Virus record (IMG/VR): IMGVR_UViG_3300045988_125590
Coordinates: 1-64,000 of that record
From: a virus
Length of the DNA stretch: 64,000 nucleotides
Direction: 5' to 3' (one strand)
Positions within the stretch are counted from its first letter, which is position 1. Every line of letters starts with the position of its first letter. This document shows, one piece after another, positions 973 through 30,461 of this stretch. The position numbers were made by a program, and so were the translations under genes. The notes under the pieces are model-generated. The model saw only the letters and a list, made by a program, of their open reading frames with translations, was not told the DNA's origin and did no database searches.

Positions 973-2781
973 TTAATCCTTCTTGACTTCTTCCTTGCCT
1001 ATGATAGCATTGAGAGTCTTCCTGAAAGGAAGAGACTTAAGAAGTTCAAATGCTGGATTAAGATTCTCAGCCATTGAAGCCATGAAATTACCAGCAGTGT
1101 TCTCGTTACCATAAACAGTAACCTCACCAAGATGGATATGCTCATAAACCTCAGCCTGAGCTTCGGCGATACCCTTAAGCTGATCAACAGTCTTGTACTG
1201 AACAATCATCTCTGGAGTCATACCTGTCTCAATCATCTTCTCAATCGCAAGTGCTGGAGCCATCTCGATAGCCTGAACCTTATCAGCCTCAGCCATCAAA
1301 GAGGCACGCTTACCTTCTGCCTCAGCAAGAAGTTTCTTCTTGTTACCTTCAGCCTCAGCTTCTGCCTTAGCTTGAATTGCCTGAGCCTCTGCCAAAGCTT
1401 TCTGCTTAATTGCTTCAGCCTCAGCCTGTGCCTCAACAATCTTCTTCTGCTTCTCAGCCTCAGCCTCAATAACTACAGCTTCCTTCTTCTTCTGAGCAGG
1501 AACAATAGATTCAGCGTTCAACTGTGCCTCTTTAGCTTCAGCATTCTTCTTAGCAATTGCTACTTCAGCTTCAGCCTTAGATACACCCTCAACGCGAACT
1601 GCCTCAGCCTGTGCCTTAGCAGCCTCAGCCTGTGCCTTAGAAACCTCGATAGTTGCTGTCTGCTCAGCTACGCCTGCCTGCTTATTAGCCTCAGCTGTAC
1701 GCTTACGCTTTTCAGCATCATACTCAGCTACCTTAGCTTCCTGCTCATTAGTAGCCTTTCTGGTTTCAGCTTCCTGCTGCTGTTCAGCCTTAGCCATACG
1801 AATATTCTTCTCAGCCTCCGCCTCTGCCTGTGCAGCAAGAGCATCTGCTTCAGACTTTGCTACAGAAGCAGCTGAACGAGCCTGTGCGGCAGCTGTAGCA
1901 GCTTCCTTATCGGCCTGCTGATTAGCAACCTCTGACTCCTTGGTCTTATCGGCCTCTGCAAGACTAATTGCCTTGTTCTTCTCGATCTCGGCAACCTTTA
2001 CTTCCTGCTCCTGCTTAGTCTGAGCCACCTGAGTAGCTTGATCCTTCTCTGCAGCAGCTACAGCAATTGCTTTCTCCTTCTTGGTTTCAGCAATCTGAAT
2101 ATCACCCTTCTTTTCCTCCTCAGCAATGTCTGCCTCAGCCTGTGCTTTTGCCTTGGTAGCTGCTTTCTTACCGAGATTCTTGATATAGTCAGCATCATCA
2201 GTAATATCAGCATTGTTAATGTTAATAATACTGAAACCTACCTTGTTCAATTCAGTCTCGATATTCTCCTTAGCATTACCAAGGAACTTGATTCGATCAG
2301 CATTGATTTCTTCAATGGTCATAGTAGCCATCAAAGCACGCGTTTCACCAATAAGAATATCGGTAATTTGAGCAGAAATTTCCTCGGGTTTAGCAGTCAG
2401 GAAACGACTTGCAGCATTTTGCATAAGTACATCAGTTGTACCAATTCCAGTAGTTAAGGTAACCGGAATTTTGACCTTAATCATCTGACTTGACACACCC
2501 GTTACCTCTGTCTGAATCTGAATTGGTTTCAGAGACATCTTCTTCCAATCCTGGATTACAGGGAATACAAAGGTACCTCCGCCATGAATGATCTTAGAAG
2601 GAAGGATTGTTGTCTCTTTCTTTCCAGTTGATGGATTAACTCCAACCTTCTTGCCAGCCTTACCAAAGACTACCAAGATTTCATCACTTGCACAACGGCG
2701 ATAACGTGACATGAGACCGATGAGGGTCAAGATTACAAGCACAACTATTGCGCCTGCAATAACTAAACTTTCTGTTAACAT
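973..2781 (-). CDS. Flotillin/SPFH (band-7) family membrane protein, YqiK-like
   Basis: N-terminal TM helix, SPFH domain, then a long Ala/Glu/Lys/Gln coiled-coil typical of bacterial flotillins. TAA stop. Confidence 0.75.
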   Translation of the reverse strand: MLTESLVIAGAIVVLVILTLIGLMSRYRRCASDEILVVFGKAGKKVGVNPSTGKKETTILPSKIIHGGGTFVFPVIQDWKKMSLKPIQIQTEVTGVSSQMIKVKIPVTLTTGIGTTDVLMQNAASRFLTAKPEEISAQITDILIGETRALMATMTIEEINADRIKFLGNAKENIETELNKVGFSIININNADITDDADYIKNLGKKAATKAKAQAEADIAEEEKKGDIQIAETKKEKAIAVAAAEKDQATQVAQTKQEQEVKVAEIEKNKAISLAEADKTKESEVANQQADKEAATAAAQARSAASVAKSEADALAAQAEAEAEKNIRMAKAEQQQEAETRKATNEQEAKVAEYDAEKRKRTAEANKQAGVAEQTATIEVSKAQAEAAKAQAEAVRVEGVSKAEAEVAIAKKNAEAKEAQLNAESIVPAQKKKEAVVIEAEAEKQKKIVEAQAEAEAIKQKALAEAQAIQAKAEAEAEGNKKKLLAEAEGKRASLMAEADKVQAIEMAPALAIEKMIETGMTPEMIVQYKTVDQLKGIAEAQAEVYEHIHLGEVTVYGNENTAGNFMASMAENLNPAFELLKSLPFRKTLNAIIGKEEVKKD

Positions 2782-2799
2782 TTATAAAATTTTTATTAA

Positions 2800-3321
2800 T
2801 TAAGAAATAAAATAAATTCCTGACTTATATGAGTCAATGTGAAGAATATCTCCACACCTTATTGTGTGATTCGCTGGCTTTGAAAGTCTACACCTATCCA
2901 GTGGAATGTATCCAGAGTCTGTTATACAGTTTCCGGAGTATTCCATTTCTGAAATCTGGACAGAAATTGCTACTTCCTTTCCAACTAAACTTTCTCCACT
3001 TTTGATTTGGGGTTCACTATTGAACTTTAAACATAGCCTATAGGCATAGTATAAAATCACAATAAATACAAAACCAATTACGGAAGCTATTGCTAGAGTA
3101 GTAAGGGTAACCTTTCCCGCTAGCATAAGCCATCCAGAGAAGCCCATTGCAAAATGAACTAATCCCTTGAAGGAGAGAACATCTCCAAGTCCAAAATCTG
3201 GTTCACCATCAAAATCGATGTCTAAATCTAAATCTCCCCAACCGAAGAAGTTGGAGAGAAGGAACTGGATAATGAAGATACCATAAGAGATGATTCCCAG
3301 AATGTAATACCACTCTATCAT
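2800..3321 (-). CDS. NfeD-like membrane protein (YqiJ-like partner of SPFH proteins)
   Basis: Multi-TM N-terminus plus C-terminal beta-rich OB-like segment, immediately upstream of the flotillin gene as in yqiJK operons. Confidence 0.55.
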   Translation of the reverse strand: MIEWYYILGIISYGIFIIQFLLSNFFGWGDLDLDIDFDGEPDFGLGDVLSFKGLVHFAMGFSGWLMLAGKVTLTTLAIASVIGFVFIVILYYAYRLCLKFNSEPQIKSGESLVGKEVAISVQISEMEYSGNCITDSGYIPLDRCRLSKPANHTIRCGDILHIDSYKSGIYFIS

Positions 3322-3434
3322 GATCTTCTTCTAATTCTTAAATATCATCACGAACAAACGCGATTACAATAATTAATACTATTAGTGAAACAATCATCCC
3401 ACCCATTTCCAATCACAGTTTGTGCCATACTTTG

Positions 3435-4667
3435 TTAAATCTTTAAGCTGTTAAACAATTCTTCCTCCATCCAAACGTCGGCTCCAATAGGATCTCCGTT
3501 TTCACGTTGATTTACACTAAGTGCCCAAAGCTTCTTTATACCGAGGCAAAGTTCTTTTGCCAAATCAGAAGGATAGCAATTATTCATAATCCTAGCTAGA
3601 TTAACACGACTCCCCGGCACATAGTACTCCTCGGCATATCTTAAGATGCCATTGAATATGTAAAGCCATAGGAGGATCTTTTTAAAGCTATAGGTTGGAC
3701 GAAGAAATCTGAACTCAATGGTTTTATTTACCTGATAGCAAAGAGCATTAATGAAGTTACACCAATAATAACGGGTTGGTATATTCCACTTTCTTTTTCG
3801 TTCCCTATCATCAGGATGAGCTTGGGTAAAACTTCCGAAGAATTGCCTTCCTACTAAATGCGAGTACATATCTTCAAAACTACCATACAAAGCAAGCTTT
3901 TTACAATAGTCTTTACCATTATCCTTATATCTAGCACTATTGAAAGTCAAAGCAGGAAGTATATTTTCTAACTCAGGTTCAATAGTTTTACATACAAGAT
4001 AAAGATTGTAGATAGTATCAGGCTTAAGAGGGTAGCCTCCTAGATGAACATGTAGAGAGCATTCCTTATTAAAGTTAGTATACTCTTTGAGCGTCTCTAC
4101 TTGCTGATGAAGAAGAGAAAGTCCTTCTCCTCCCTTCAATACAACGGTAGAATACTCTGGTCCGGTAATGGATCCATCCCTTAATGGGATTAATCCATCT
4201 CGATAACATACGTCCTCAGGCACATATCCTTGAGATGTTTCGAACTCCAGTCCAAAAGTGTACTTTAAATATTTTGCTAAGGGATACAAAGTTTCCCGGT
4301 CTTTAATTTCTTGCTTTCCCTTAAAAGCATCGAAATTCTCTACAGCTTCATATCTTCTAGTAAGGATGTAGGGAAAACCTCCAAGACCCTTTATGAGTTG
4401 TTCTGCGAGTATAAAATCCTCATCGTGATTGATAGGAGAAAAGTATATTCCATTTCTCCTACTATACAAGAGTTTCCCCTTATATAGATTTAAATCCGTT
4501 TCAAAATAGTTATTAAATCCATTAGAAGTAGTTATAAGGACTCTAACAACTCTATCAGGTTTACTAGTATATCCGAAGATAACTTGTTCCGGAAGTTGTT
4601 GGATGACAATCCTCGCACAATTTCGAGAGCTCACCCATCTTTTAGTTATTTCATCAAAGACTTGCAT
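3435..4667 (-). CDS. Putative amidoligase, glutamine-synthetase-like fold (Amidoligase_2 / GCS2-like)
   Basis: Motifs TFGLEFETS (G.E.E), SLHVHLG (H.H) and IEFRF (E.R) in the order expected for GS-like carboxylate-amine ligases. Confidence 0.5.
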   Translation of the reverse strand: MQVFDEITKRWVSSRNCARIVIQQLPEQVIFGYTSKPDRVVRVLITTSNGFNNYFETDLNLYKGKLLYSRRNGIYFSPINHDEDFILAEQLIKGLGGFPYILTRRYEAVENFDAFKGKQEIKDRETLYPLAKYLKYTFGLEFETSQGYVPEDVCYRDGLIPLRDGSITGPEYSTVVLKGGEGLSLLHQQVETLKEYTNFNKECSLHVHLGGYPLKPDTIYNLYLVCKTIEPELENILPALTFNSARYKDNGKDYCKKLALYGSFEDMYSHLVGRQFFGSFTQAHPDDRERKRKWNIPTRYYWCNFINALCYQVNKTIEFRFLRPTYSFKKILLWLYIFNGILRYAEEYYVPGSRVNLARIMNNCYPSDLAKELCLGIKKLWALSVNQRENGDPIGADVWMEEELFNSLKI

Positions 4668-5992
4668 TCTTCTTTAATTGTTTTGAAATTAACATCCAAT
4701 TTAGCTCCCTCTAGAGATATAAATGCCTCATCAGAACGCCTACCATATTTAGTAGTTCTTCTGCTTCCAGCAAAAAATTCTGTAGAAGAAGTTGATGTAA
4801 TCATGTTCAGTATTCCTGTAAATGGAATCCTCTTGGTTGGAGAGGTAGCTCTGTACCATACATCCTTCTCATGATATACACCATCAACACTTAAGTACCT
4901 TATAAGGTTCTTAAATTTCTTATTAAACTCTTTATCTTCGAGCTTACTGTCCTTCTTAAGGACTGTAAGAAATCGAAAGCATGCAACATTCTTAAGAGCA
5001 ACTCCATCCCAAAAGAATATCTCTTTATATGTTGCCTTTTTAGGAGCTTCATCCAGCATCATTCCATACTTATTGAGTAGCACTCGTCCTTGAAGCTTTT
5101 TGCCCTTTCCATGATAAGTATTATCTACTTGATTAGTTGAAATGAAATCGTCATAAAGACTGCCATCACTTTCCTCCAGCCCAAATTCTCCCCAATATTT
5201 TCTATCATATTTAGATGGAGTTACATATATGGTTTCCTTCCTTTGGTAAGCATTAGCTCTAGAAACTTCCTCGACAGCAATTAGGTCTCTACCATTAAAC
5301 TCATAGAGACAATTTGGATTTAAAATCCAGGTTGTGAGCTTATGTCTAAGGGACATCAAATAGGAAGCGATAGAAGAGAAGATTAACTCCCCCTTTACAG
5401 GATCAACACAGAAGTACAATGGGCGTTCATCAGTTTCCTTCTTGTCCCACTTGTCTTTCTTAGAGGCTCCTTTAAAGAGCAACACCTTTGGTTTTCCACC
5501 ACGGTAATCTGCAATTGCAAACACTGCGCCACCATTGTACTCACTAAGTGCTTTGTATCCAGAACGATAGAAAATTCTAGCCATTACTTGAGAATCAGTC
5601 ATACCAGTAATGTCAATGTCTGGTATATATTTATTAGCTAATTCCTCATAATTATAGATAGTTCCATTATGCATAAGAACGTATTCTACCTTTCCATTAG
5701 CATCAGTAAGTACCACTGGCTGAGCGGTCGTCTCGTCAATGATTCCGACAGATGCTTTTCTACAATGACCAAAAGCTACCGAACTCATTTTAAGTTCATT
5801 AAGGAACTTATTGTCTTGGAAAAAGCACTGAAACCACTTATCATTTCCTTTCGCTCCATACTCGTAGTGTCCATCAATAAAATATCCACAAGAGTCACCT
5901 CCTCTACTGTCATTAGCGATACCTAATGTACAGAAAGTTGGAAAGTCAAAAGACCGTGTGCTCTTTGTAACAATACCAAATATTCCACACAT
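4646..5992 (-). CDS. Class-II (Ntn) glutamine amidotransferase domain protein
   Basis: N-terminus MCGIFGIV with Cys2 nucleophile, typical of GATase-2 (PurF/GlmS/AsnB-type). C-terminal ~250 aa uncharacterised; no PP-loop seen. Confidence 0.65.
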   Translation of the reverse strand: MCGIFGIVTKSTRSFDFPTFCTLGIANDSRGGDSCGYFIDGHYEYGAKGNDKWFQCFFQDNKFLNELKMSSVAFGHCRKASVGIIDETTAQPVVLTDANGKVEYVLMHNGTIYNYEELANKYIPDIDITGMTDSQVMARIFYRSGYKALSEYNGGAVFAIADYRGGKPKVLLFKGASKKDKWDKKETDERPLYFCVDPVKGELIFSSIASYLMSLRHKLTTWILNPNCLYEFNGRDLIAVEEVSRANAYQRKETIYVTPSKYDRKYWGEFGLEESDGSLYDDFISTNQVDNTYHGKGKKLQGRVLLNKYGMMLDEAPKKATYKEIFFWDGVALKNVACFRFLTVLKKDSKLEDKEFNKKFKNLIRYLSVDGVYHEKDVWYRATSPTKRIPFTGILNMITSTSSTEFFAGSRRTTKYGRRSDEAFISLEGAKLDVNFKTIKEECKSLMK

Positions 5993-5994
5993 AA

Positions 5995-6786
5995 TTATGC
6001 TAAATTATAATGAGTTATTAACTGTTCAGCTAATTCAACATCACTGTTATTAATGGTTTTCTGAACTAAATCTCTACTTGGAAGACTATAGTTAATCTGA
6101 CAAGCTTTTAAAGCTTTTTGTAATTGCCTCCAGACGAAAGATAACTTAGATGAAGAACTCATCATGGTACTACTGAGAACTCGATACTCAACACCGTAAT
6201 CAGTCAGACGGAAGCATCCAGCTTTACCATAAAGAGAGCGACGCTTCTTATCTTTATCTTTAACAACAGAAGGAATACCTAAAAAGGCATCCATGTACCT
6301 TACAAGAGCAAGACTAGTATCTACATCAGGATTTTCATATCCCACATGAATGTGGAAACCAGCAGAGCGAAGATTAGTTGATGTACCCTCAGGTTTAGGG
6401 TTTGCTTTCATTGTATAAGCATTATAATCAACATCACATCCAAAAAGCTTAGCTTGATCACTCTGTAATTCAGATGTAGGTACAGTCTGAGAGGCTATGC
6501 ATTTGATACCAAGATTAGGATTTTTACTCTTAACAAACTTGTCTATATATTCTTGCATATAAACAATATTGGTAACAAAGTTTATCCCATCCTTAACAGG
6601 AGGAATGTTAAACTCTGCAAGAATATTATCAGTTTCAAGACCGAAGCCCTCAGGCATATCGTCAGCTCTCCATGGATTGCCTTTTTCACCAGGAATTAAT
6701 CCAACAGCAGACACCACCTTCTTTGTCTTCTCATTGATAATAAACAGTTCAGGGTCTGCACCAATAGTTACATTACGCAATTTCAT
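5995..6786 (-). CDS. Second, smaller amidoligase-like protein (GS-like fold)
   Basis: GADPELF / GFGLETD (G.E.E-type), FHIHVG (H.H) and VEYRV (E.R) motifs. Confidence 0.45.
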   Translation of the reverse strand: MKLRNVTIGADPELFIINEKTKKVVSAVGLIPGEKGNPWRADDMPEGFGLETDNILAEFNIPPVKDGINFVTNIVYMQEYIDKFVKSKNPNLGIKCIASQTVPTSELQSDQAKLFGCDVDYNAYTMKANPKPEGTSTNLRSAGFHIHVGYENPDVDTSLALVRYMDAFLGIPSVVKDKDKKRRSLYGKAGCFRLTDYGVEYRVLSSTMMSSSSKLSFVWRQLQKALKACQINYSLPSRDLVQKTINNSDVELAEQLITHYNLA

Positions 6787-7402
6787 TTACGAGATCTTTT
6801 ACAAGGTTATTAATCATTTTAGCAACAGGAGAATCAGGGATCATTTCGGGATGACCTTGCACTGCAAGGCACTTAGGTAATCCATTCTTGTGATATAAAA
6901 CGATTTCTGGTTCTCTTCCGAAAACAGCGTTAGGATCTATACCATCTCCTTCGTAATAGTCACTCTCTACTTCGTAAGATGTAAATAGGATATCATAATC
7001 ATCTTCACTAAGATCAAATGGATATTGCATCTGATGGTGGGTGGAAGTTATTTGATAAACCTTATCCCTATTAGTTATTCCGTGAGTGAATCCATTAGCA
7101 TGACTCGTTACATTTTGAATAAGCTTGCCACCATTCATCACACATAGAAATTGAGACCCACGGCAAATTCCTAGACAAACCTGTTTCTTCGGATCTACCT
7201 TATTAAAGATAGCTTGTTCTGCCTGGTCTCTTCTAAGGTTGGAATAGGTAGTTCTATGCTTCTTGCATCCATAAAGAGAAGGTGTGACATCTTCTCCGCC
7301 GGTAAACACCACTAATTGTGCATCCTCAAGTTTATCAACAAGTTGCACATTTTCAATGAAGTTGACGTAGTTATCAGCTCCACCTACAACATAAATCTTC
7401 AT
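6773..7402 (-). CDS. Class-I glutamine amidotransferase-like / gamma-glutamyl hydrolase (peptidase C26) family protein
   Basis: Catalytic Cys motif GICRGSQ and His-Glu motif AVQGHPE, characteristic of the GATase1 triad. Confidence 0.65.
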   Translation of the reverse strand: MKIYVVGGADNYVNFIENVQLVDKLEDAQLVVFTGGEDVTPSLYGCKKHRTTYSNLRRDQAEQAIFNKVDPKKQVCLGICRGSQFLCVMNGGKLIQNVTSHANGFTHGITNRDKVYQITSTHHQMQYPFDLSEDDYDILFTSYEVESDYYEGDGIDPNAVFGREPEIVLYHKNGLPKCLAVQGHPEMIPDSPVAKMINNLVKDLVNEIA

Positions 7403-8160
7403 TTCTTCTTTATTATTTCTTTATAAACATTCATATAAATTGGCTTCCTTCGTCTTTCAAAGATGTCGTCGCTTTCCCAAAATTCAAAATCAGAAGTGGT
7501 AAGATCCCCATCTCCGTCAGGAATTTGGTTATTTTTGACTTTGTTCTTCAACTTACCATAAATTTTGTTTAGCGTTTCGATATTATGGAGTTTCTCCCTA
7601 ATATCTCTCTTTAACATAGTCTTGCTAACTTGGTTCCTAGCTATTTGATGAATATTTCCGGGATCTTCGTTGAAACAGCCTAGCACAAGATTAAACAAGT
7701 CAGACATAGAGGTGAACCTAAAGCAGGGGTCCTTTTTTAACTTATAAGCATCATATAAGATAACATTATAAGGGTACTCATACATATATCTTAGCCAAGT
7801 TAAAAGATATTTATGAAATGTACCAGGAACATTAGTGAGTTTTAAGTGAACTTTAAATACATTATAGTTATCTCTCCAATTAGAAACTTCTGTAATGTAG
7901 AAATCAAATGGATAAATACCTTGAGCTTGTCTAAGATGATTTCTTATCTGTTTCTTTGTAAAGAGACACGAATTTGAACTATGCTTCTCTCTAGAAAAAT
8001 CAGTTCCCTTATAAAGGATAACTTCATATTCTTCACTCACATTTTTCTCACTAGTGCGTCTAAATACGAAGGAGAAACATGCTTCCGCATCCATCTCTTT
8101 TTCAAAGGCGCCCTTACATGAATATTCTGTATGGTAATCTAAAAATTGAAAATCTTTCAT
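7399..8160 (-). CDS. Hypothetical protein
   Basis: 253-aa ORF, 4-bp start/stop overlap with neighbours. No motif recognised. Confidence 0.45.
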   Translation of the reverse strand: MKDFQFLDYHTEYSCKGAFEKEMDAEACFSFVFRRTSEKNVSEEYEVILYKGTDFSREKHSSNSCLFTKKQIRNHLRQAQGIYPFDFYITEVSNWRDNYNVFKVHLKLTNVPGTFHKYLLTWLRYMYEYPYNVILYDAYKLKKDPCFRFTSMSDLFNLVLGCFNEDPGNIHQIARNQVSKTMLKRDIREKLHNIETLNKIYGKLKNKVKNNQIPDGDGDLTTSDFEFWESDDIFERRRKPIYMNVYKEIIKKK

Positions 8161-8223
8161 TAAAGAAAAAAAAAATAGAGACTCCTACTATTGTTCGGAG
8201 CCTCTTAGGGTTATGAGGGTGGA

Positions 8224-9258
8224 TTAGTCCTCGATGTCTTCCTCTTTTTCCTTCTCAGGAGCAGCCTGAGCAGTACCAAACATGTTACCAAAAGGATTGT
8301 TGCCTCCCATCATGCTCATCAAAAGCATGTCCTTGATAGACACATTATCCTTACCAGCAAGCAATGCAAACATCATAGGATTGCCAGCTATAGCACCTCC
8401 CTGCTGATTCATCATCATGAGAGGGAGCAACGAAGTCAATGAGTTATCATCCTTACCATCCTTAGCAAGTGCCATAAGCATCATAGGGTTCATCTGGCCT
8501 CCCATGTTACCAGTAAGAGATACCACTACGCGGACCATAGTCTGGTTGAACAGGAAGTCCTTGATGGTACGAATCAGCTTACCAGCACCTGTATAGCTGA
8601 TGGCGTTGATCTTCTCACCCTTGATAGAGGTAACTTTGGCATAGCTACGGTCAAGAGCAATGATATCACCTACTACAAGGTTCTCCTTAGGCTTGCTTAT
8701 GATGAACACAGGCAGTGGAAGAGTGAGTTCCTCTGGATAAGCAGTCAGGTGATTCTGAGCGTCAATTGCTACATAACCCTGATTGGTTGCAACACAGATG
8801 TTACCATCCCCAGAGACACGAACATCCTTAGCCCTTGTAGGCATATAGGTCTCTTCCAAGCGATCAGAGAAACCTGCAATAGTGTTCTTGGTAACACCCT
8901 CTACAGAAGAGTTTACAAGAGGTTTCTTTCCGCCAAATGGATAATCTACCTGTACAATACCAACGATGTTGCTCTTCCTAGCATAGCCGTAGTCACCACC
9001 TGTCTCAAGGACATAGATGTGATTGCCTTTGCTGCTGAGAATGTGTGCACCTTCCTCTACTGAGTAGAGTTCAGTACCTTCCTTTGCAAAGCAAGTCATG
9101 AACTTACCATTCTCTTCTGCGAAGTTAGCCACCTGCTCCAAAGTTGTTGGAACGAAATTAGGGTTTGAAGTGTACAAAATTGATTTGATCATTTTGTGTA
9201 AAAAATTTAAAAAGTTATTAATGTGCCTTTCGGCGTTATATACAAAAATAGCTGACAC
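8224..9258 (-). CDS. Hypothetical protein with Met/Gly/Asn-rich C-terminal low-complexity domain
   Basis: 344-aa ORF. C-terminus GQMNPMMLMALAKDG...LLPLMMMNQQGG...MLLMSMMGGNNPFGNMFG, then acidic tail. Confidence 0.45.
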   Translation of the reverse strand: MSAIFVYNAERHINNFLNFLHKMIKSILYTSNPNFVPTTLEQVANFAEENGKFMTCFAKEGTELYSVEEGAHILSSKGNHIYVLETGGDYGYARKSNIVGIVQVDYPFGGKKPLVNSSVEGVTKNTIAGFSDRLEETYMPTRAKDVRVSGDGNICVATNQGYVAIDAQNHLTAYPEELTLPLPVFIISKPKENLVVGDIIALDRSYAKVTSIKGEKINAISYTGAGKLIRTIKDFLFNQTMVRVVVSLTGNMGGQMNPMMLMALAKDGKDDNSLTSLLPLMMMNQQGGAIAGNPMMFALLAGKDNVSIKDMLLMSMMGGNNPFGNMFGTAQAAPEKEKEEDIED

Positions 9259-9282
9259 TATTACTAGTGCCAGCTTTAGAGG

Positions 9283-9375
9283 AGGGTGTGAGATTCGAAC
9301 TCACGGAACGCTCGTCACGTTCTCCGGTTTTCCAAGTAGTATATACTACTCCGACTATGTCTTAACCATGCGATT
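9283..9375 (-). ncRNA. tRNA-like element (T-arm gtgag-TTCGAAT-ctcac, long variable-arm-like hairpin, 3' acceptor) without identifiable 5' half
   Basis: gagattcgaactcac on the plus strand. 5' acceptor complement ggagggt not found nearby; a near match gggaggt lies ~200 nt upstream inside the conserved leader. Confidence 0.3.
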
Positions 9376-9608: not shown

Positions 9609-9872
9609 TTAGCCTGCTTCTACTTCCTGAATTTCTTCAGGAGCACTCGTACCCCAATCTAAATTAACTATATAAGGATTCCAATCTTCTGTAAGGGTTA
9701 ATGCCCCACTTACATTGATAAGACTACTAGGAATCTCATACATAGTTCCTTCTACAGTTACGATAAACACAACATCACAAGTCGTGTTGTCAAAGCGTCT
9801 TATTGTAGATTTGCCAGAAGCGCCTCCACAATTTTTAAGTTGGACTACATAGTAGGTATTATTTTTATTCAT
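9609..9872 (-). CDS. Hypothetical small protein
   Basis: 87-aa ORF. Confidence 0.35.
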   Translation of the reverse strand: MNKNNTYYVVQLKNCGGASGKSTIRRFDNTTCDVVFIVTVEGTMYEIPSSLINVSGALTLTEDWNPYIVNLDWGTSAPEEIQEVEAG

Positions 9873-10888: not shown

Positions 10889-10889
10889 C

Positions 10890-11213
10890 TCATAACACCT
10901 TCATATACAAGTTCTTTGGATAATTAGGAAAAACTGCTAATGTAACTGGACATAGCCAAATTTCCCCACTAAAGTTAAGAGTATTTACTCCATAAGTAGC
11001 CCCAAATTCATCCTCAGAAACTCTATTGAGGTGTATATAATCCTTTATAGGGTCTGTTGATACTTCTATGGAGATTCTAGTGTTTCCATTACAGAGGGAA
11101 TCTAGAAGTAAATCTGCACCTGCTACCATTTGCAGATCAGATACATCTCCTTCCCAAGGAATATCTACAAACCAACGTTCAGATAATTTAACGAAAGATA
11201 ATATTTTCTTCAT
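10890..11213 (-). CDS. Hypothetical protein
   Basis: 107-aa ORF. Confidence 0.35.
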   Translation of the reverse strand: MKKILSFVKLSERWFVDIPWEGDVSDLQMVAGADLLLDSLCNGNTRISIEVSTDPIKDYIHLNRVSEDEFGATYGVNTLNFSGEIWLCPVTLAVFPNYPKNLYMKVL

Positions 11214-11383: not shown

Positions 11384-11582
11384 TTAAAACAGAATACATT
11401 TTAGAAATTAACCATGATAATTATCGATAAAATTGCTGATAGTATTCTTATTGTAACAAAATGGAAAAACAAAAACGGAATGCTACTAGAAATGTTCAAG
11501 ATTAAAAGTCTCGTATTATAGTCTAAGTTTGCTGTACGCATTCCTATAACAATCTTCTAAATTATACAATATTTAAGTGGAG

Positions 11583-11660
11583 ATGAGGGGAGTCGAACCC
11601 CTGTCTTACATATTTGCATCAAAGCATTCTTACAGCTTAGGTTTTAAAGACTATCCTTGT
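11583..11660 (-). ncRNA. tRNA-like 3' element (T-arm agggg-TTCGACT-cccct plus acceptor strand) without foldable 5' half
   Basis: gggagtcgaacccct on the plus strand. Upstream region does not supply a complementary 5' acceptor. Confidence 0.3.
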
Positions 11661-11946
11661 CTATTAGGGTTGACAGGATTGATATACTGCCAACTTCCAC
11701 CACTCTGTTCCTAAAGTATACAGAGAACTTATAGAATTGTTAATGGTGCACCTTTCTGTTCCTAAGCAAGTGCTGCTCGACTTATTAGGCAGCAGCCTGA
11801 TAAGCAGGAGTCATATTAATAACCCTAGCATTTATGGTTTTGTTGTCTTTCCAACTGTCTTTGCTGTGCTTCTTATCTCCTACGCAATCAAAACCAAACA
11901 TCCCCATAACAAGCAGTTTCGGGTCATGCTCAGGACTCTCTTTCAC

Positions 11947-12468
11947 TTATACCATTTCTTTCAATAGTCCAGTATAGTTTGGATGGCTAGCATATCCAAT
12001 TCGATTTAGAAAGGCATAATAACTGCCTCCATTATATCTATTAGATATACATTTCTTATAATCCTCTACACATTCTGTCCAATGGGAATACCGTCTATAA
12101 CGATTTCCCTTTTTAAGTCCAAAAATATTCTGATGAGTACGAACTAAGTTAGACTTAAAATTACCTGTTTCAAGCTTGGCTTGAGCAAGTACAATATTTG
12201 CGTGAGGTATATTGTTCTTAATAAGTTCAGCCTTCAAATTGGTTTCATTAAGAACTTTTGGTTTAGCAACTGGCTTTACCTGAGCGACTTTAACATTTTT
12301 GTCCTTAGATGTAACCTTTGCTGAATCCTTTACCATTTCAATACGGATAGTATTTTCAGATGGTCTAGGAGAACTTTTTGGCACTGAAATTATAGTAATT
12401 AAAGCACCAAGGATTAAACCTATCATCAGGTAAAATCCATTTTGATAAATCTGTTGTTTCATAATCAT
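11947..12468 (-). CDS. Membrane-anchored peptidoglycan hydrolase, glucosaminidase/FlgJ-like (GH73 family)
   Basis: N-terminal TM helix. Motif NIVLAQAKLETGNFKSNLVRTHQNIFGLK matches the LytD/FlgJ glucosaminidase signature (AQA.LE.G......NN.FGIK). Confidence 0.55.
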   Translation of the reverse strand: MIMKQQIYQNGFYLMIGLILGALITIISVPKSSPRPSENTIRIEMVKDSAKVTSKDKNVKVAQVKPVAKPKVLNETNLKAELIKNNIPHANIVLAQAKLETGNFKSNLVRTHQNIFGLKKGNRYRRYSHWTECVEDYKKCISNRYNGGSYYAFLNRIGYASHPNYTGLLKEMV

Positions 12469-12901: not shown

Positions 12902-14347
12902 TTACTGCACGTTATAGTTATTCAAACTATCGTCGAAGTAATTTTCAGCCATTGCAATGAACTGTTTAGTACGCTTGTTGTCTACATCTAGGCATTCCTT
13001 GAGTGCCTCAACAAGTCTCTTCTCAGGAGTTTGAGACATATCCTTCTTCCGAGAAAGCTTAACCTGATGCAGATAAGACTTAACAGAGTTAAGAATATAC
13101 TCTGCCTTTACAACACACTCATCAGTGAGTACCATCATAGATTTAACCTTCTCGATAATTTCTGCCATAAATGCAGGAGCGATATTGTTCTCTTCGATGA
13201 ACTTACAAACATCTGTAAGGTCGTCCTCAATCTGATAACAACCAATCTCGAAAGATTTACGAATAAACTCTTCTGCTGTAGCAGCATCCAGAGTACCCAT
13301 AGAGATGATAGTGCCAACTCGCTTACCTCTTAAGAAGGTAGGTTCAATGAGTTCAATATGATTAGTAGTGAAAAGGGTAATGACATTCATATCCTTAGTA
13401 TCACCACCATCCAATGTGTTAAGGATGTCCTGCATAGCAGAGTCACGATTGCCTCGTGTTACCTGATCAATATCCTCAACAAAGATTACAACACCATGTC
13501 CAGACTGATCAATGATCTTAGACATGCGAAGAGATTCTGCCAAGAGTTTTGGGTCCTTCAGATAAATGAACATCCAATTGTTCTTGACAGCTTCACGAGC
13601 AAGTTTGAAGGCAAGAAGAGTTTTACCAGTTCCATAGCCTCCTTCTAATAATGCTCCAAACTTCAACGGAATGCCTTTCTCAATACACTTTTCTGGATTG
13701 AGAATGCGAGCATTGATTGGACGAAGGGCATACTCAGTTTCCTTACTAATAACCATTAACTGGTCGTCAATGTTACGTAAGTCAAGAATTTCTGGATTGT
13801 TAATGTTAGAAATCTCCAGAGCCTGACCCTTATAAATCGAATTAGTCTTCAAATTCGTTTTAGTCTGCTCGATAATGTCATCCATTAAAGATGAAAAACG
13901 GAACTGGAGTCTTCCAGTAATTATCAGCTCATGTGTATCAGAATGATAATTAATGTTAATTGAGGAATCCTCTCCGAGACCATCAAGCTGAATATCTCCA
14001 TAAGGAGCCTTAACTCTAGTTCCGTCAGCAAGAGTAATGTCTACAGTTTGAACACTCTTTTCACCTGATGGACTGCCACTTTCCTTAGAAACAACAGATC
14101 CAAACACCTGAGAAATAGCCTGATTGAGCTGATAGATACCATCGTTGCGGAAACACTGAATGCGATAGTTGATTTTTGCCATCTTCTTAGATTGGGCAAT
14201 CTCGCTCTCAATGTAGTCAAGGCAATCAGCATAAGTTGTATCCTGTAACTGCATTACCTCTATGAACTTACCTTTCATAGCCTCCTCATAGTTGTTTACC
14301 TTCTGCTCAAGAGTAGAACTCTTGCTTTTTCTTGTAACTTGATTCAT
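12902..14347 (-). CDS. AAA-family ATPase (classic AAA clade)
   Basis: Walker A GGYGTGKT, Walker B VIFVEDID, sensor-1 TTN and downstream Arg in the C-terminal half. ~230-aa uncharacterised N-terminal domain. Confidence 0.7.
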   Translation of the reverse strand: MNQVTRKSKSSTLEQKVNNYEEAMKGKFIEVMQLQDTTYADCLDYIESEIAQSKKMAKINYRIQCFRNDGIYQLNQAISQVFGSVVSKESGSPSGEKSVQTVDITLADGTRVKAPYGDIQLDGLGEDSSININYHSDTHELIITGRLQFRFSSLMDDIIEQTKTNLKTNSIYKGQALEISNINNPEILDLRNIDDQLMVISKETEYALRPINARILNPEKCIEKGIPLKFGALLEGGYGTGKTLLAFKLAREAVKNNWMFIYLKDPKLLAESLRMSKIIDQSGHGVVIFVEDIDQVTRGNRDSAMQDILNTLDGGDTKDMNVITLFTTNHIELIEPTFLRGKRVGTIISMGTLDAATAEEFIRKSFEIGCYQIEDDLTDVCKFIEENNIAPAFMAEIIEKVKSMMVLTDECVVKAEYILNSVKSYLHQVKLSRKKDMSQTPEKRLVEALKECLDVDNKRTKQFIAMAENYFDDSLNNYNVQ

Positions 14348-14956: not shown

Positions 14957-16738
14957 TCACGAATCAGTATGAACTGTATACTTTTTATTTTTACGCTTAG
15001 CTACACTAAGCTTCACAATTCTTACTCTGTTAAGTAACTCCTGATCCATTGCTGTCAAGAACAACTCTTCTGCATTTTTAGGAGCTTTGAACTCAGGTTT
15101 ATTTCCTCCTAAAATGAATGCTACAGCACTCGGGTCATAGCCAGACATATAGAAGAAATTAGGAGCATTCGCAAAGTCTTCAAACTTTACTTTGTTGTCA
15201 GCACCATACCATCCATTAGGAATATCCCAAAGGATAATCTTAAAGGAATTAACGTACTCCTTACTAAACCCTGCTTCACGAAGTCTCCTAATTGCAAGTT
15301 GGAAATTTGTAGATTTGTTAGTACCACATCTATCAAACTCCCCGTCACTTACGCAGAGGATTCCACTTGGGAAATCTCTTTCTTCAACTCCTTTCAATTT
15401 TAATCCTACAAAGAGATCTATTACAGACTGGAAATTGGTACTTCCGTAAGCCTCACAACGATCATTGATATACTTGTCAACTGGGGTTGCTCCATTCCAT
15501 CTAAGAAGTTTGCAGCTATTAGAGAACTCTGCAAATGTATTAGCAAAGTATCCTTCTAAGAACTCAGAGAAATACAATGCCATAGACTTGGCAATACAAG
15601 ATGAAGATACATTACACCCTCTAGCAGTTGATTCCATTGAGCATGAGGTATCTCGTACTACAAGTAGTGAAGACTTAGCATCCACATTCTCTTTGCCCGT
15701 CTTTACAAGTTGTGCAAATTGCGCATTGATTGTCTTTTCCTTGTAATCCTCTATATGTCGATAGTTTCCATCGAAAGGAGCAAACAGCTCAAACACATAT
15801 CCTGTAAACTTAGCTACAGGCTTAGAGGAAATCCAATCAATATACTTCTTGGTAAGATTGTGGTTTTCCAAGAAGTTAGAACCAACCAAGAGAGCTAAAG
15901 CTCTACCTGCAATGTGATCAAAGTTAAGTGAATCGTACAACTGCTGAGAAATAAGTTGTTGCCATTCATGGGCAATACCCTTAGACTTAATCTTTCGATA
16001 AGCTTTATAAGCAGATTCCTTCTCCAATTTAGGAGAGAATTTTCTAGCCAACCATCTACCTATAAGAGTATCTGCTTGAGACTCAAGCGTTGTACAGTTC
16101 TTATTGGTTCTAATAGTTGGTAGGTACTTACGTACCAGGTGGGTTGTATCAGGATTGTTAAGTCCTGCTAACAAAGTCAGATATAGGAAATTCCAATCTA
16201 ACTTTCTCTCTTTCCAACCGTGATATTGTAAGTCTAAAGAGAGCATTTGGATGACATCCTTCCATGAGCCTGCTGCAATGAAAAGAGGAAGATTTACGTT
16301 AAATGTTGCAGGTTGATTAATCGCCAACCACAGCATTCTCATAATACCTTCATTCCTTAAGCCTTGTCCACGCTGAACCTCTAGTTCTTCACTCTTGTTT
16401 ATAGTGACAATTTTAGACTTACGTGTGATGAGTCTGAAATAGAGTGCAAGTTTTACACAGAGAGTAGGATTTGAACTCCATAGAGTTTGCATATCCTTTG
16501 CCACCTCCTCATAAGAGCGAGGCTCTTTGAAATATGAAGCAGCAGCAAAGTTATCAACAAAATCATTTCCAGTTGTGGAATACTTCTTTGCTCCATTGCC
16601 TGACTCAGTTTCAGAAGACACTTCCGATGCTTGCTCTACGAACTGATTCTCGGCAGGTTTAATGTCGAGAAGTGAATTTACCTTCTTTTGAAATTCCATA
16701 CTTTTTACATGATTATTAAAAATTTTTATAACTTCCAT
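14957..16738 (-). CDS. vWA-domain protein (MIDAS motif D-T-S-C-S-M); speculatively Ro60/TROVE-like
   Basis: LLVVRDTSCSMEST is a DxSxS MIDAS motif at the start of a C-terminal vWA-like region. ~350-aa mostly alpha-helical N-terminal region. Sits next to the AAA ATPase. Confidence 0.5.
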   Translation of the reverse strand: MEVIKIFNNHVKSMEFQKKVNSLLDIKPAENQFVEQASEVSSETESGNGAKKYSTTGNDFVDNFAAASYFKEPRSYEEVAKDMQTLWSSNPTLCVKLALYFRLITRKSKIVTINKSEELEVQRGQGLRNEGIMRMLWLAINQPATFNVNLPLFIAAGSWKDVIQMLSLDLQYHGWKERKLDWNFLYLTLLAGLNNPDTTHLVRKYLPTIRTNKNCTTLESQADTLIGRWLARKFSPKLEKESAYKAYRKIKSKGIAHEWQQLISQQLYDSLNFDHIAGRALALLVGSNFLENHNLTKKYIDWISSKPVAKFTGYVFELFAPFDGNYRHIEDYKEKTINAQFAQLVKTGKENVDAKSSLLVVRDTSCSMESTARGCNVSSSCIAKSMALYFSEFLEGYFANTFAEFSNSCKLLRWNGATPVDKYINDRCEAYGSTNFQSVIDLFVGLKLKGVEERDFPSGILCVSDGEFDRCGTNKSTNFQLAIRRLREAGFSKEYVNSFKIILWDIPNGWYGADNKVKFEDFANAPNFFYMSGYDPSAVAFILGGNKPEFKAPKNAEELFLTAMDQELLNRVRIVKLSVAKRKNKKYTVHTDS

Positions 16739-28732: not shown

Positions 28733-28807
28733 TGGTCGCCCCATTCAGATTCGAACTGAAACGTGCGGTTTTAGAGACCGCTGTGCTAACCATTACACCA
28801 TAGGGCA
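28733..28807 (-). tRNA. Amber-suppressor tRNA (anticodon CTA), tRNA-Gln-like body, CCA encoded
   Basis: Acceptor tgcccta/tggggcg (U1-G72); D gtgt-aatggtta-gcac nearly identical to tRNA-Gln(TTG) at 21540-21610; anticodon stem gcggt/accgc with loop ctctaaa (C34 U35 A36 reads UAG); T-arm ttcag-ttcgaat-ctgaa; 3' ACCA. Confidence 0.7.
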
Positions 28808-29287: not shown

Positions 29288-29389
29288 GTTATTTTGCTTA
29301 TTTGATTACATAGCAAATATATATTCTCCTTCTAAAAATCAAAAATAGAATATTGTTAAAAACTATTAAGATTTAAATTTACCTCCATT

Positions 29390-30236
29390 TTTAAGAGTAA
29401 ATCCCTAACTAGTCCAACTTGGGACAGTTTGAAGATTAAAATCCAATAGTTTAGGCTTTTTAAAGAAAGTTAATCCTACATTTCCAGGAGATACATCATC
29501 AACTACTACAGTACCATTGGTATATGCTCTATATTGTACATTTGGATCATTGACTTTTCTAAAACCACTCTTCTACATAGCTTTATCCAGTTTACCAACA
29601 TACTTTGGAAAAGTCTTTTCACTAAGGACTTTTACTTTCTTCTAAATGAAAGTTGGAAATCTTTTAGACCCATCCCTCACATATCCTACAAACTTTAGAG
29701 GAAGGGAATTTGGAATTGCATTCCTTTTCAACATTTCACCACTTCCAACCTAAGTTATCTTTCCTACTGTAGTAGGAGAATTTCTTATTACAAGGGCTTC
29801 TGAACCCTATCCTATTTTATAAGGAGTTAAGGCGGATAACTTACCTACTGTAACTCTTCTAGAAACAGAAGGTAAAACACCTTTAAAAGAACTTGCAGGT
29901 CCTACAGTTATAAGGGAAGTTCCTATGTTCTTTACATTATCTTTAGCATAATTAAAATTAGACTATATTTTCTTCTAATCCTTTTCTTTAGAAGGGTCAT
30001 AATGAGTTTGCTTTCCAAATACTCCATATCCAAAGAAGTTATCATTATAGAAGTTCTACATATTCTAATAGTACTTAGCTTTGTCTGCATCATAGATTAC
30101 TGCTTGATTTCTTTTAGCAGCTTCCTATAATCTTCTCTACCTAATTCTAGCCTACTGTTCTTTAGTAAGTCGAAAAGCTAGAGGTTGTTTTCTAACAACT
30201 CTAGTATTATCCTATACTGCAATACCGCCTCTCTAA
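29390..30236 (-). CDS. Hypothetical protein, TAG-recoded (boundaries approximate)
   Basis: Minus-strand frame from ATG at ~30236 is open for ~280 codons if the ~13 TAGs are read as sense: MIKFQRGGIAVQDNTRVV... Confidence 0.3.
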
Positions 30237-30239
30237 AAC

Positions 30240-30461
30240 TTAATCATTCATTTTACCTTTCCAAATTCCAGTTACTGAATCTATTCCTAGTAATAAACAT
30301 ACTGCATATATAAAAGGTTCTATCATTAGAGGGGCTTGAATAGAAGATATTGTACAATAGACTAACACAAAAATAATAATAAGGAATCCAATTACTCCAC
30401 AGACTCTTTTACTACTAATGCCAGAATGTGAAGTAATCATCAACCTAAGAAATTCTTTCAT
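30240..30461 (-). CDS. Small two-TM membrane protein, holin candidate
   Basis: 73 aa; two hydrophobic helices (VCGVIGFLIIIFVLVYCTI, FIYAVCLLLGIDSV); near the virion-lysin gene. Confidence 0.4.
   Translation of the reverse strand: MKEFLRLMITSHSGISSKRVCGVIGFLIIIFVLVYCTISSIQAPLMIEPFIYAVCLLLGIDSVTGIWKGKMND

Follow-up and report, generated by a model that had tools for sequence, protein, structure and literature searches.

A phiEco32/LUZ24-type amidoligase and glutamine amidotransferase cassette beside an independent flotillin pair in crAss-like phages

Eight adjacent genes in a viral DNA stretch of 64,000 nucleotides (the window) were found to join a cassette of amidoligase and glutamine amidotransferase enzymes to a flotillin and its small membrane partner, in a lineage-specific juxtaposition rather than a conserved coupling, the two modules evolving independently. 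With moderate confidence, we read the block as two separable modules that are chance neighbours, module A (positions 9192–3435) being built on two glutaminase-ligase pairs and module B (3321–973) on a flotillin scaffold. The four enzymes of module A make up the cassette of phiEco32/LUZ24 type that was predicted in 2009 and is kept as a collinear unit; annotations of this cassette already exist for the crAss-like phages cr108_1 and phi14:2. New points are that the crAss-specific unk253 family belongs to it, that unk322 occupies the slot of a RimK-like ATP-grasp protein found in other cassettes, that introns and homing endonucleases sit at its catalytic motifs in relatives, and that the flotillin pair is conserved in more than 70 large crAss-like genomes.

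Genomic context and gene layout

The eight co-directional minus-strand open reading frames between positions 973 and 9258 were confirmed as given in a preliminary description of the sequence, save that the first of them probably starts at 9192 and not at 9258. Terminase, portal and capsid genes within the window confirmed the phage context, and the genomes carrying the block are those of one sublineage of large (about 165–175 kb), TAG-recoded, human-gut crAss-like phages. The overlapping or tight spacing holds from unk253 to the amidoligase gene, where the junctions measure, in order, -4, -14, +2 and -22 nt, the remaining ones in the block being 63, 113 and 18 nt; the gaps bordering the cassette (63 and 113 nt) thus exceed the internal spacing, with its overlaps between GAT1 and CN-ligase (-14) and between GAT2 and amidoligase (-22). 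In-frame TAG codons are absent from all eight genes but number 4–26 in late genes, which fits expression before the code switch and suggests that the block is expressed early. The 113-nt gap between the amidoligase and NfeD-like genes contains no predicted terminator, and the cassette and the flotillin module may conceivably be co-transcribed in this phage. An 87-aa gene (9609–9872) lies upstream of the cassette. A glucosaminidase gene (11947–12468) is also found near the block, and relatives have an OmpA-like gene downstream.

The four cassette enzymes

GAT1 (6773–7402, minus strand) is a class-I glutamine amidotransferase of the gamma-glutamyl hydrolase-like Peptidase_C26 type (Pfam Peptidase_C26, E = 2.2e-16; GATase, 6.5e-7; PHROG 7218, 7.8e-36) with intact Cys (GICRGSQ) and His-Glu (GHPE) motifs. 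Its nearest solved structures are Lin1909 and PuuD, and its top NCBIfam matches, gamma-glutamyl-CDP-amidate hydrolase and PuuD, both fall under the cut-off. CN-ligase (5995–6786, minus strand), whose gene shares 14 nt with that of GAT1, was previously noted as a second amidoligase-like protein and proved to be a phiEco32-type COOH-NH2 ligase type 2, a GCS2/GS-like carboxylate-amine ligase (Pfam COOH-NH2_lig, PF14395, 3.1e-12; PHROG 3815 'COOH.NH2 ligase', 5.8e-67) with homologues in 316 phage records; D11, E13, E58, R140, H145, H147, R193, E200 and R202 are invariant among its crAss, phiEco32-like and cyanophage members.

GAT2 (4646–5992, minus strand) is a class-II (Ntn) glutamine amidotransferase (GATase_6, 2.1e-14; GATase_7, 6.4e-10) with a C-terminal domain of about 230 aa, and its N-terminus, MCGIFG, has the Cys2 nucleophile in place. 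C2, R30, R78, N109, G110 and D133 are conserved. The GAT2 family profile matched the N-domains of PurF, GlmS and AsnB at 1e-16, and the NAGGN amidotransferase and AsnB N-domains were among the best NCBIfam matches; residues 230–448 gave no match with the family profile. The amidoligase (3435–4667, minus strand), whose gene shares 22 nt with that of GAT2, is a GS-like carboxylate-amine ligase with an N-terminal extension of about 130 aa, matching Pfam Amidoligase_2 (PF12224) at E = 2.3e-5 (24.8 bits, gathering cut-off 22) and PHROG 2443 at 2e-11. Residues E141, E143, D164, E171, H206, H208, E318 and R320 are invariant, a sequence search for a solved relative found none, and in two relatives (L004 and L007) the gene is split by a group I intron.

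The enzyme classes proposed in the preliminary description were thus borne out for all four proteins, as was its remark that the cassette lacks biochemical characterization, of which we found none in the literature searched. Catalytic residues are conserved across distant cassette members, no cassette protein has a transmembrane (TM) segment, and all look cytoplasmic. Several genome papers (e.g. PMC10580990, PMC10945688) regard such enzymes as auxiliary metabolic genes of a generic kind, which would raise the glutamine/nitrogen metabolism of the infected host or its glutathione-like gamma-glutamyl metabolism, and cellular GCS2-like and C26 enzymes do work on gamma-glutamyl compounds. We hold this to be very improbable, as the families are phage-specific and distant from housekeeping enzymes, every match of the cassette enzymes to NCBIfam equivalogs is far under the cut-off, and the fixed four-gene synteny with phage-only accessory proteins points to a dedicated pathway.

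Accessory proteins and upstream hairpin

The two remaining module A products, described earlier as unknowns, gave no match in a family search (7399–8160 and 8224–9258). The first, unk253 (253 aa; 7399–8160, minus strand), is crAss-lineage-specific, occurs in 56 of the best 80 of 274 CN-ligase loci and conserves C15, C28, C65, H75, H116 and H171 together with the motif FHKYxLTWxRYxYExPYN. The second, unk322 (322 aa; 8224–9192, minus strand), is the first cassette gene and was revised from a 344-aa reading frame: its start is probably ATG 9192, since GTG 9258 falls within a terminator-like hairpin (9275–9250) and the homologues are 319–330 aa long. This hairpin with its T run (ATTTTTGT; 9250–9275, minus strand), recognized by a terminator scan and in the sequence itself, lies directly upstream of the cassette. 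Within the tail of the hairpin, TATTTTTG agrees with the Bacteroidota -7 promoter consensus TAnnTTTG, and a promoter may be situated there.

The unk322 protein comprises an N-terminal alpha/beta domain, tandem SH3/KOW-like barrels and a disordered tail that is indeed Met-rich (15 Met among the final 95 residues). Among the best 80 of 274 loci, a RimK-like ATP-grasp protein was found in 59 and unk322 in 18, never together. The long tail mostly ends in Asp or Glu, as would suit protein tagging or tail modification of the Pup/PafA or RimK-on-S6 kind, with unk322 as tag, carrier or substrate; the GS-like ligases would activate the carboxylate of the tail, which could then be amidated, glutamylated or joined to a target lysine. 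The last residue varies among family members, and we consider such a role quite improbable.

Conservation of the cassette in related viruses

The cassette was surveyed in the best 80 of 274 CN-ligase loci in IMG/VR. GAT1 was detected in 73, CN-ligase in 79, GAT2 in 72 and the amidoligase in 70 of these 80, and the four enzymes are collinear in about 70, so that they are kept as a unit in relatives; they form, as suggested earlier, a module of the type predicted by Iyer, Aravind and colleagues. The same enzyme set is found in cr108_1, phi14:2, ECBP2 and Lbo-JY46. In relatives, group I introns and LAGLIDADG or HNH endonucleases are found at the catalytic-motif sequences NLRSAG/FHIHVGY and GICRG/SQ (slashes mark the sites), which argues for functional, conserved cassette genes.

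In most relatives, the cassette lies within a replication/nucleotide-metabolism block, with UDG as the next gene in 26 of the best 80 of 274 loci, a position as compatible with a nucleic-acid target as with one in the cell wall. The cassette could accordingly be imagined to serve DNA or nucleotide hypermodification, its ligases putting glutamyl or amide groups on a modified base or precursor and so shielding the DNA from restriction. It is placed between primase/helicase and UDG/exonuclease genes in cr108_1, phi14:2, ECBP2 and many IMG/VR loci, the best NCBIfam match of GAT1 is a hydrolase of gamma-glutamyl-nucleotide conjugates (below cut-off), amidoligase and glutamine amidotransferase genes are reported to co-associate with thymidine-hypermodification clusters (Lee et al. 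2021, PMC8989533), and CmoY is a precedent for ATP-dependent amide ligation on DNA bases (PMC12783734). However, the 'replication' arm of crAss-like genomes holds nearly all their non-structural genes, which makes the position little informative, CmoY belongs to a different, AsnB-like family, and no base-activating enzyme (dUMP hydroxymethylase, 5-HMUDK, aGPT-Pplase, CmoA/CmoX or TET) was found beside the cassette in the window or in annotated relatives. Hypermodification thus appears rather unlikely.

The flotillin and its small membrane partner

The flotillin-type SPFH protein (973–2781, minus strand) consists of an N-terminal TM helix, a Band_7 domain (residues 34–224; Pfam, 2.6e-20), a long Ala/Glu/Lys-rich coiled coil and a C-terminal domain. 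It matched NCBIfam FloT at 9.6e-38, with 130 bits where the cut-off is 700, and is 24% identical to the E. coli flotillin YqiK (E = 6e-18). Homologues with 51–99% identity were found in 73 IMG/VR loci. Only 5 of 50,697 deposited phage records matched, one of them near full length, and the flotillin is, as had been remarked, rare cargo among deposited phages.

The obligate partner of the flotillin is a small membrane protein (2800–3321, minus strand) with N-terminal TM helices, an acidic DxDxDxD loop and a small C-terminal beta domain; its gene lies immediately upstream of the flotillin gene in 72 of the 73 loci, and its family comprises 1183 representative clusters. The preliminary description had called the two a flotillin-NfeD pair, of which the flotillin stands and NfeD could not be shown: the partner had no match in Pfam, NCBIfam or PHROG, PF01957 matched only 2/13, 3/33 and 4/35 family members (best E, 0.01), and hhalign against E. 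coli YbbJ and YqiJ gave probabilities of at most 4.2%. An NfeD identity was hence not demonstrable by profiles or hhalign, and the protein is NfeD/YqiJ-like in architecture and position only, in keeping with its strict pairing with the flotillin.

Independence of the two modules

Neighbourhoods of flotillin loci were examined within 10 kb on either side. The flotillin and its partner occur without the cassette in 56 of the 64 evaluable loci and with it in 8. Conversely, 9 of the best 80 of 274 cassette loci have a flotillin pair within 10 kb and the other 71 do not, and neither do the two stand side by side in cr108_1, phi14:2, ECBP2 and csAssE-Sib, the last of which has a TM-protein/flotillin pair in its replication module without a cassette. 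In three relatives (L027, L045 and L080), the 87-aa gene is directly upstream of the NfeD-like gene, so that the cassette is a 5.9-kb indel at this junction; in this lineage it is an insertion upstream of an existing flotillin pair.

Gene neighbourhoods thus uphold the four-enzyme cassette and the flotillin/partner pair as units, but not their linkage, which the preliminary description had extended to a possible single system for the whole block. In such a system, the enzymes would modify a membrane or envelope target at flotillin and NfeD-like microdomains early in infection. The eight co-directional, TAG-free genes, the gap without a predicted terminator, the retention of the arrangement in relatives at about 50–68% identity (L014, L015 and L041), the envelope-related glucosaminidase and OmpA-like genes close by and the published idea of cell-wall modification (PMC5498523) would agree with it. 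The distribution of both modules, the indel beside a pre-existing pair, the wider border gaps and the cytoplasmic appearance of the enzymes make it quite unlikely.

Proposed function

As a variant of the phiEco32/LUZ24-type cassette, module A may work as two glutaminase-ligase pairs, GAT1 with the COOH-NH2 ligase and GAT2 with Amidoligase_2, the gene overlap inside each suggesting translational coupling. The pairing is drawn from these overlaps, and the order in phiEco32-like and LUZ24-like phages (CN-ligase, GAT1-like, amidoligase, GAT2) speaks against it. The GS-like ligase of each pair would use ATP to activate a carboxylate as acyl-phosphate, and its amidotransferase would either provide glutamine-derived ammonia or form or trim a gamma-glutamyl amide. 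Both pairs would act on one shared cytoplasmic acceptor, which would receive a carboxamide or an amide bond of gamma-glutamyl type. Alternatively, the C-terminal domain of GAT2 could be an acceptor domain, in which case Amidoligase_2 would be independent of GAT2. unk253 and unk322 complete the cassette, the latter in the RimK-like slot. The likeliest acceptor would be a small glutamyl-peptide or muropeptide-like molecule, following the description of the cassette as a putative peptidoglycan-modification/superinfection-exclusion module (PMC5498523), which PMC10580990 also gives in a passage citing Iyer et al. 2009. Module B, a YqiK/FloT-like SPFH scaffold with its obligate partner, presumably assembles as an oligomeric scaffold bound to a membrane of the infected cell.

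Comparison with known systems

Cellular analogies for the cassette logic are GatD/MurT (peptidoglycan iso-Glu amidation), PuuA/PuuD (gamma-glutamyl-putrescine) and AsnO/Ngg in NAGGN synthesis, which share the combination of a glutaminase or gamma-glutamyl hydrolase with an ATP-dependent ligase. PuuD is among the nearest solved relatives of GAT1; however, the window proteins reach none of the family cut-offs of these systems and the ligases are GS/GCS2-like, not Mur-ligase-like or AsnB-like, so that the likeness to cellular split amidoligases is one of working mode and not of membership. Pup/PafA/Dop pupylation likewise combines a GS/GCS-like ligase with a protein that has a disordered tail, mostly ending in an acidic residue, but there is no sequence relationship and the terminal residue of unk322 varies; the resemblance may serve as a lead.

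Module B resembles yqiJ-yqiK of E. coli and yuaF-floT of B. subtilis. There, too, the gene directly before the flotillin gene codes for a small polytopic membrane protein whose C-terminal domain is of beta type, and the flotillin combines a TM helix with an SPFH domain and a long coiled coil. The window pair differs in being phage-encoded, its partner has no significant similarity to YqiJ or YbbJ, and its flotillin is far under the FloT equivalog cut-off.

For module A, the 'peptidoglycan modification cassette' of phiEco32, LUZ24, PaP3, tf and PSA-HP1 (PMC5498523; Iyer et al. 2009) has the same four families (PF14395, PF12224, a class-II GATase with Cys2 and a small class-I/C26 GATase), likewise clustered and co-directional in podovirus-like phages of Gram-negative hosts. 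The window cassette differs in its order (GAT1, CN-ligase, GAT2, amidoligase), in its two added crAss-specific proteins, unk253 and unk322, to which the two upstream hypothetical proteins of ECBP2 have no detectable relation, and in that neither a RimK-like ATP-grasp nor a GGCT was found in the 64-kb window. The closest deposited relatives are the cassettes of cr108_1 (NC_055878) and Cellulophaga phage phi14:2 (NC_021806), which, unlike the window, contain an ATP-grasp (with a GGCT in phi14:2), are followed by UDG within the replication module, and lack the flotillin pair and unk322. The cr108_1 cassette includes two unk253-family paralogues (gp029 and gp030), retains the gene order of the window and is 49% (CN-ligase), 43% (amidoligase), 44% (GAT1) and 40% (GAT2) identical to it.

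Phage background and code usage

Terminase, portal, capsid and tail genes clearly mark the window as phage DNA, and its sequence is best described as that of a distant crAss-like lineage. Its major capsid protein shares only 21–22% identity with those of Crassvirales, and the closest relatives of its cassette proteins are found in the crAss-like phages cr108_1 and phi14:2. Near-identical relatives in IMG/VR are 165–175 kb in size, and a near-identity nucleotide search of 50,697 phage records with the block at 973-9258 gave no match. Screening of the window with PADLOC returned nothing meaningful for defence or anti-defence.

ORF coverage was 27 kb with the standard code versus 54 kb with TAG read as a sense codon. 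Such use of TAG was found in the late and lysis genes (29366-33673, minus strand, and 34330-63481, plus strand; 4–26 in-frame TAGs per gene), and a suppressor tRNA with anticodon CTA, tRNA(CUA), is encoded at 28733-28807 (minus). All eight genes of the block contain zero in-frame TAGs and other early-side genes also avoid this codon; a TAG-free block fits, at the level of sequence, expression before the code switch under the published timing model. Both the cassette and the flotillin pair lie in a tRNA-rich arm (806-28807, minus), where ARAGORN detected 20 tRNA genes among small ORFs. A tmRNA gene is located at 11575-11905 (minus; Rfam RF00023, 63 bits vs. a gathering score of 47) and has counterparts in three related IMG/VR loci (L004, L015 and L086).

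Enzymes of the cassette

Eight co-directional ORFs on the minus strand, between 973 and 9258, make up the block. The preliminary description of it as an amidoligase/GATase set next to a flotillin-NfeD pair was essentially right as an observation on the sequence: five of its domain calls were confirmed by Pfam (Amidoligase_2, class-II GATase, COOH-NH2 ligase, C26/class-I GATase and Band_7), with PHROGs in agreement. Its interpretation of the enzymes was also correct but already known.

The amidoligase (3435-4667, minus) scored 24.8 bits for Amidoligase_2 (PF12224; cut-off 22), and is therefore a marginal Pfam pass; it also matched PHROG 2443 (2e-11) and keeps the invariant motifs ExE, HxH and ExR. 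GAT2 (4646-5992, minus) is a class-II GATase (GATase_6, 2.1e-14; GATase_7) that begins with MCGIFG and thus contains the Cys2 nucleophile; its family profile matches PurF at 1e-16, and the conserved residues are Cys2, R30, R78, N109-G110 and D133. The CN-ligase (5995-6786, minus) belongs to the phiEco32-like COOH-NH2 ligases of type 2 (PF14395, 46.7 bits vs. a cut-off of 25; PHROG 3815, 5.8e-67), with the corresponding acidic, His and Arg residues conserved. GAT1 (6773-7402, minus) was assigned to Peptidase_C26 (2.2e-16)/class-I GATase and carries the motifs GICRGSQ and GHPE (Cys, His, Glu), PuuD being among its nearest solved relatives. The best NCBIfam matches, none of which reached its threshold, pointed to gamma-glutamyl hydrolases and to amidotransferases of AsnB type, and PDB profile searches with the GAT2 C-terminal domain, the amidoligase and the CN-ligase found no relatives.

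In close relatives, intron and endonuclease insertions in the amidoligase, CN-ligase and GAT1 genes fall at sequences coding for catalytic motifs. Rfam group I introns were found in the amidoligase genes of L004 and L007, LAGLIDADG ORFs split the CN-ligase of relatives between NLRSAG and FHIHVGY and between TDYG and VEYR, and HNH ORFs split GAT1 between GICRG and SQ, as well as the amidoligase. These introns and homing-endonuclease ORFs are located at 10889-11173 and 7278-8162 in L004, 10888-11337 and 6600-7346 (minus) in L007, 5179-5838 in L084, and 8439-8972 in L015.

Distribution and composition of the cassette

Homologues of the CN-ligase were found in 316 deposited phage genomes, mainly from phages of Pseudomonas, Escherichia, Vibrio and Aeromonas, and were most similar in two crAss-like phages, cr108_1 and, through the amidoligase, phi14:2. 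The four enzyme families are clustered likewise in cr108_1, phi14:2, Lbo-JY46 and the phiEco32-like ECBP2, and also in the LUZ24-like phage UFV-P2 (PMC3890496). In these phages a RimK-like ATP-grasp usually accompanies them, and GGCT often does so too. We take the cassette to be the module of Iyer et al. 2009. Their proposal, as paraphrased in later work (PMC10580990), was a cell-wall modification preventing superinfection, and the genes have been named a "peptidoglycan modification cassette" (PMC5498523). A literature search found no biochemical characterisation of the cassette, which, with its 316 deposited genomes and 274 IMG/VR stretches from one scan, places it among the most widespread phage gene sets in that position.

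That scan was made with a CN-ligase alignment, and the best 80 of the 274 relatives were analysed. GAT1 was detected in 73 of these 80 loci, the CN-ligase in 79, GAT2 in 72 and the amidoligase in 70, and their order (GAT1, CN-ligase, GAT2, amidoligase) was collinear in approximately 70, confirming that the cassette is kept as a syntenic unit. GGCT was present in only 24 of the same 80 loci and is thus not universal, and UDG follows the cassette in 26. Neither GGCT nor UDG gave a match anywhere in the 64-kb window, nor did a profile of 50 ATP-grasps from phages detect any ATP-grasp there. Judged by its predicted gene content, the window cassette is a variant without ATP-grasp or GGCT, complemented by two lineage-specific proteins. 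The present work thus adds the definition of a minimal cassette variant, two components specific to this lineage, which may give a hint of the substrate, and the targeting of catalytic motifs by selfish introns.

The upstream proteins unk253 and unk322

The two ORFs upstream of GAT1 have no Pfam family match. The unk253 family (7399-8160, minus, in the window) is found directly upstream of GAT1 in 56 of the best 80 of 274 loci, often as two paralogues, and takes in gp029 and gp030 of cr108_1 according to both HMM and Foldseek comparisons (E 1e-6 to 4e-8). The predicted model of unk253 was fairly confident (pTM 0.74) and matched none of the solved folds it was compared with. The hypothetical proteins upstream of the ECBP2 cassette were considered as homologues of unk253 or unk322 and rejected, as no HMM match was obtained.

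For unk322, the ORF start previously placed at 9258 was not upheld. The GTG at this position lies inside a terminator-like hairpin (9275-9250) and homologues are 319–330 aa long, and the gene therefore most likely begins at the ATG at 9192 (8224-9192, minus), encoding a predicted protein of 322 aa. The predicted model falls into three parts, among them a confident N-terminal alpha/beta domain and a disordered tail, the Met-rich nature of which was correctly noted before (15 Met among the last 95 residues). The tail (8224-8510, minus) is of low complexity, with repeated NPM motifs. That unk322 serves as a tag in the manner of Pup is a weaker lead: its C-terminal residue, preceded by a hypervariable Pro/Ala-rich linker, is acidic (Asp or Glu) in 111 of the 113 closer homologues, compared to only 7 of the 11 distant ones.

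The slot upstream of unk253 is occupied by a RimK-like ATP-grasp in 59 and by the unk322 family in 18 of the best 80 of 274 loci, and by both in none; the ATP-grasp genes compared with unk322 were those of the IMG/VR loci L097-L167. A 20-residue motif of unk322 (GAHIxTxKGNxIYVLE) resembles the ATP-grasp Lys/Gly loop, with an hhalign probability of only 3.8%. In two loci (L094 and L095), the unk322 family is reduced to an 89-aa N-domain.

The flotillin and its membrane partner

The flotillin (973-2781, minus) matched Band_7/SPFH (PF01145; 73.7 bits, cut-off 23.6) and was aligned by BLASTP to E. coli YqiK across most of the protein (residues 11-409 and 313-593, 24% identity, E 6e-18). It has a hydrophobic N-terminus, and a membrane anchor, a long coiled coil and a C-terminal region of flotillin type were all recognized. 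The match to NCBIfam FloT reached 130 bits against an equivalog cut-off of 700, and the protein is, by sequence comparison, a divergent member of the family rather than an orthologue of FloT. A scan of IMG/VR identified 73 flotillin loci (51–99% identity), every one on a large phage contig, and in 72 of these the gene for the small membrane partner (2800-3321, minus; 173 aa) is found directly upstream, with a gap of 18 nt in the window.

In the partner, TM helices are combined with an acidic DxDxDxD loop and, at the C-terminus, a small beta domain. This architecture and the pairing with flotillin fit its earlier assignment to NfeD, but homology to NfeD was not significant in any search. PF01957 did not match the window protein, and matched only sub-threshold in 2 of 13, 3 of 33 and 4 of 35 partner-family members (best E 0.01). 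With hhalign, comparisons to E. coli YbbJ and YqiJ gave probabilities of 4.2% or less, the C-domain being in register with residues 90-147 of YbbJ at 2.4–4.2%. A PDB profile search found nothing, a profile search of 5.8 billion proteins gave no significant annotated relatives, and a search of 1.84 billion representatives, with Pfam applied to distant matches, yielded no significant NfeD. The partner family comprises 1183 representative clusters at 50% identity and is recognized by no Pfam model.

More than 70 large (95–190 kb) crAss-like contigs conserve the pair (IMG/VR loci L009-L081; P0361-P0509). A literature search found no paper joining crAss-like phages and flotillin, and a 2026 preprint on a crAss phage with amber recoding noted an SPFH domain. 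The flotillin pair of these phages is a real, conserved and little-noticed feature, with an obligate membrane partner in large gut crAss-like genomes, and such phage-encoded membrane scaffolds could matter for management of the host envelope by abundant gut phages.

Relationship between the cassette and the flotillin pair

The suggestion that the cassette and the flotillin pair form one coupled system was not supported by gene neighbourhoods. The cassette is adjacent in 8 of 73 flotillin loci (the close kin L009-L013, together with L014, L015 and L041), and of the 64 flotillin loci in which the upstream sequence was long enough, 56 lack any cassette gene within 10 kb. In the other direction, flotillin is found within 10 kb in only 9 of the best 80 of 274 cassette loci. 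All six cassette genes are present without flotillin in L008/L113, and a TM-protein/flotillin pair lies inside the replication module of csAssE-Sib (GenBank), with no cassette. In L027, L045 and L080, a homologue of an 87-aa gene (9609-9872 in the window) is located directly upstream of the NfeD-like gene, which indicates that the approximately 5.9-kb cassette is an insertion at this junction in the window lineage. The spacing agrees with a two-module reading: -4, -14, +2 and -22 nt from unk253 to the amidoligase, compared to 63 nt between unk322 and unk253, 113 nt between the amidoligase and the NfeD-like gene, and 18 nt between the latter and flotillin. From this comparative picture, the block is two modules in lineage-specific juxtaposition, best treated separately in experiments, and the negative result on coupling is useful in this respect. 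The two modules may be co-transcribed in the window phage, since the 113-nt gap contains no predicted terminator.

This gap (3322-3434, minus) contains a possible hydrophobic mini-ORF of 21 codons (MGGMIVSLIVLIIVIAFVRDDI), and in near-identical relatives (L083-L086) it holds an extra 193-aa ORF without family match (9347-9928 in L083). Just upstream of the pre-cassette terminator hairpin, a degenerate tRNA-like remnant is found at 9280-9352 (minus; T-arm GTTCGAATC), with weak Rfam matches to tRNA-Sec and antisense trnS-like; this remnant may have been left behind by insertion of the cassette.

The flotillin gene is followed by a 95-aa Trans_reg_C winged-helix protein (501-788, minus), and in L083-L086 a 333-aa OmpA-family protein comes next downstream of flotillin. 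Together with a glucosaminidase at 11947-12468, this means that several envelope-related genes surround the block. An AAA ATPase is encoded at 12902-14347 (minus; the corresponding 481-aa gene of L083 matches Pfam AAA), beside a 593-aa ORF (14957-16738, minus) with a vWA/MIDAS-like motif, DTSCS, read by eye only.

Proposed chemistry and comparison with known systems

The overlap of the GAT1 and CN-ligase genes, and of the GAT2 and amidoligase genes, suggests two paired ligases, which would be heteromeric, glutamine-dependent and ATP-dependent carboxylate-amine ligases. The favoured acceptor, in line with the published proposal, would be a small glutamyl-peptide or muropeptide-like molecule. 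Its serious rival is a nucleic-acid target, since most cassettes are housed in replication blocks and since clusters for thymidine hypermodification were noted by Lee et al. 2021 to include amidoligase and GATase genes (PMC8989533). Amidation of tRNA(Gln) tied to TAG-to-Gln recoding was also considered, and was rejected because the cassette is common in standard-code phages.

We regard it as improbable that the cassette of this sublineage has been rewired and recruited to the membrane, to perform amide modification of envelope precursors or a host membrane protein at phage flotillin microdomains early in infection. Here, unk322 would replace the RimK-like ATP-grasp in a cassette inserted directly upstream of the flotillin pair, and its putative SH3-like core and Met-rich, amphipathic, acid-ended tail would make it a membrane-binding or substrate-presenting adaptor, or a genetically encoded tag. 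If true, this would amount to a novel type of device with which a phage remodels the envelope or excludes superinfection.

The cassettes of phiEco32 type share the four clustered core families with the window, but usually also have the RimK-like ATP-grasp, and often the GGCT, that are missing from it. The two proposed ligase pairs would be analogous to GatD/MurT, PuuA/PuuD or AsnO of NAGGN synthesis.
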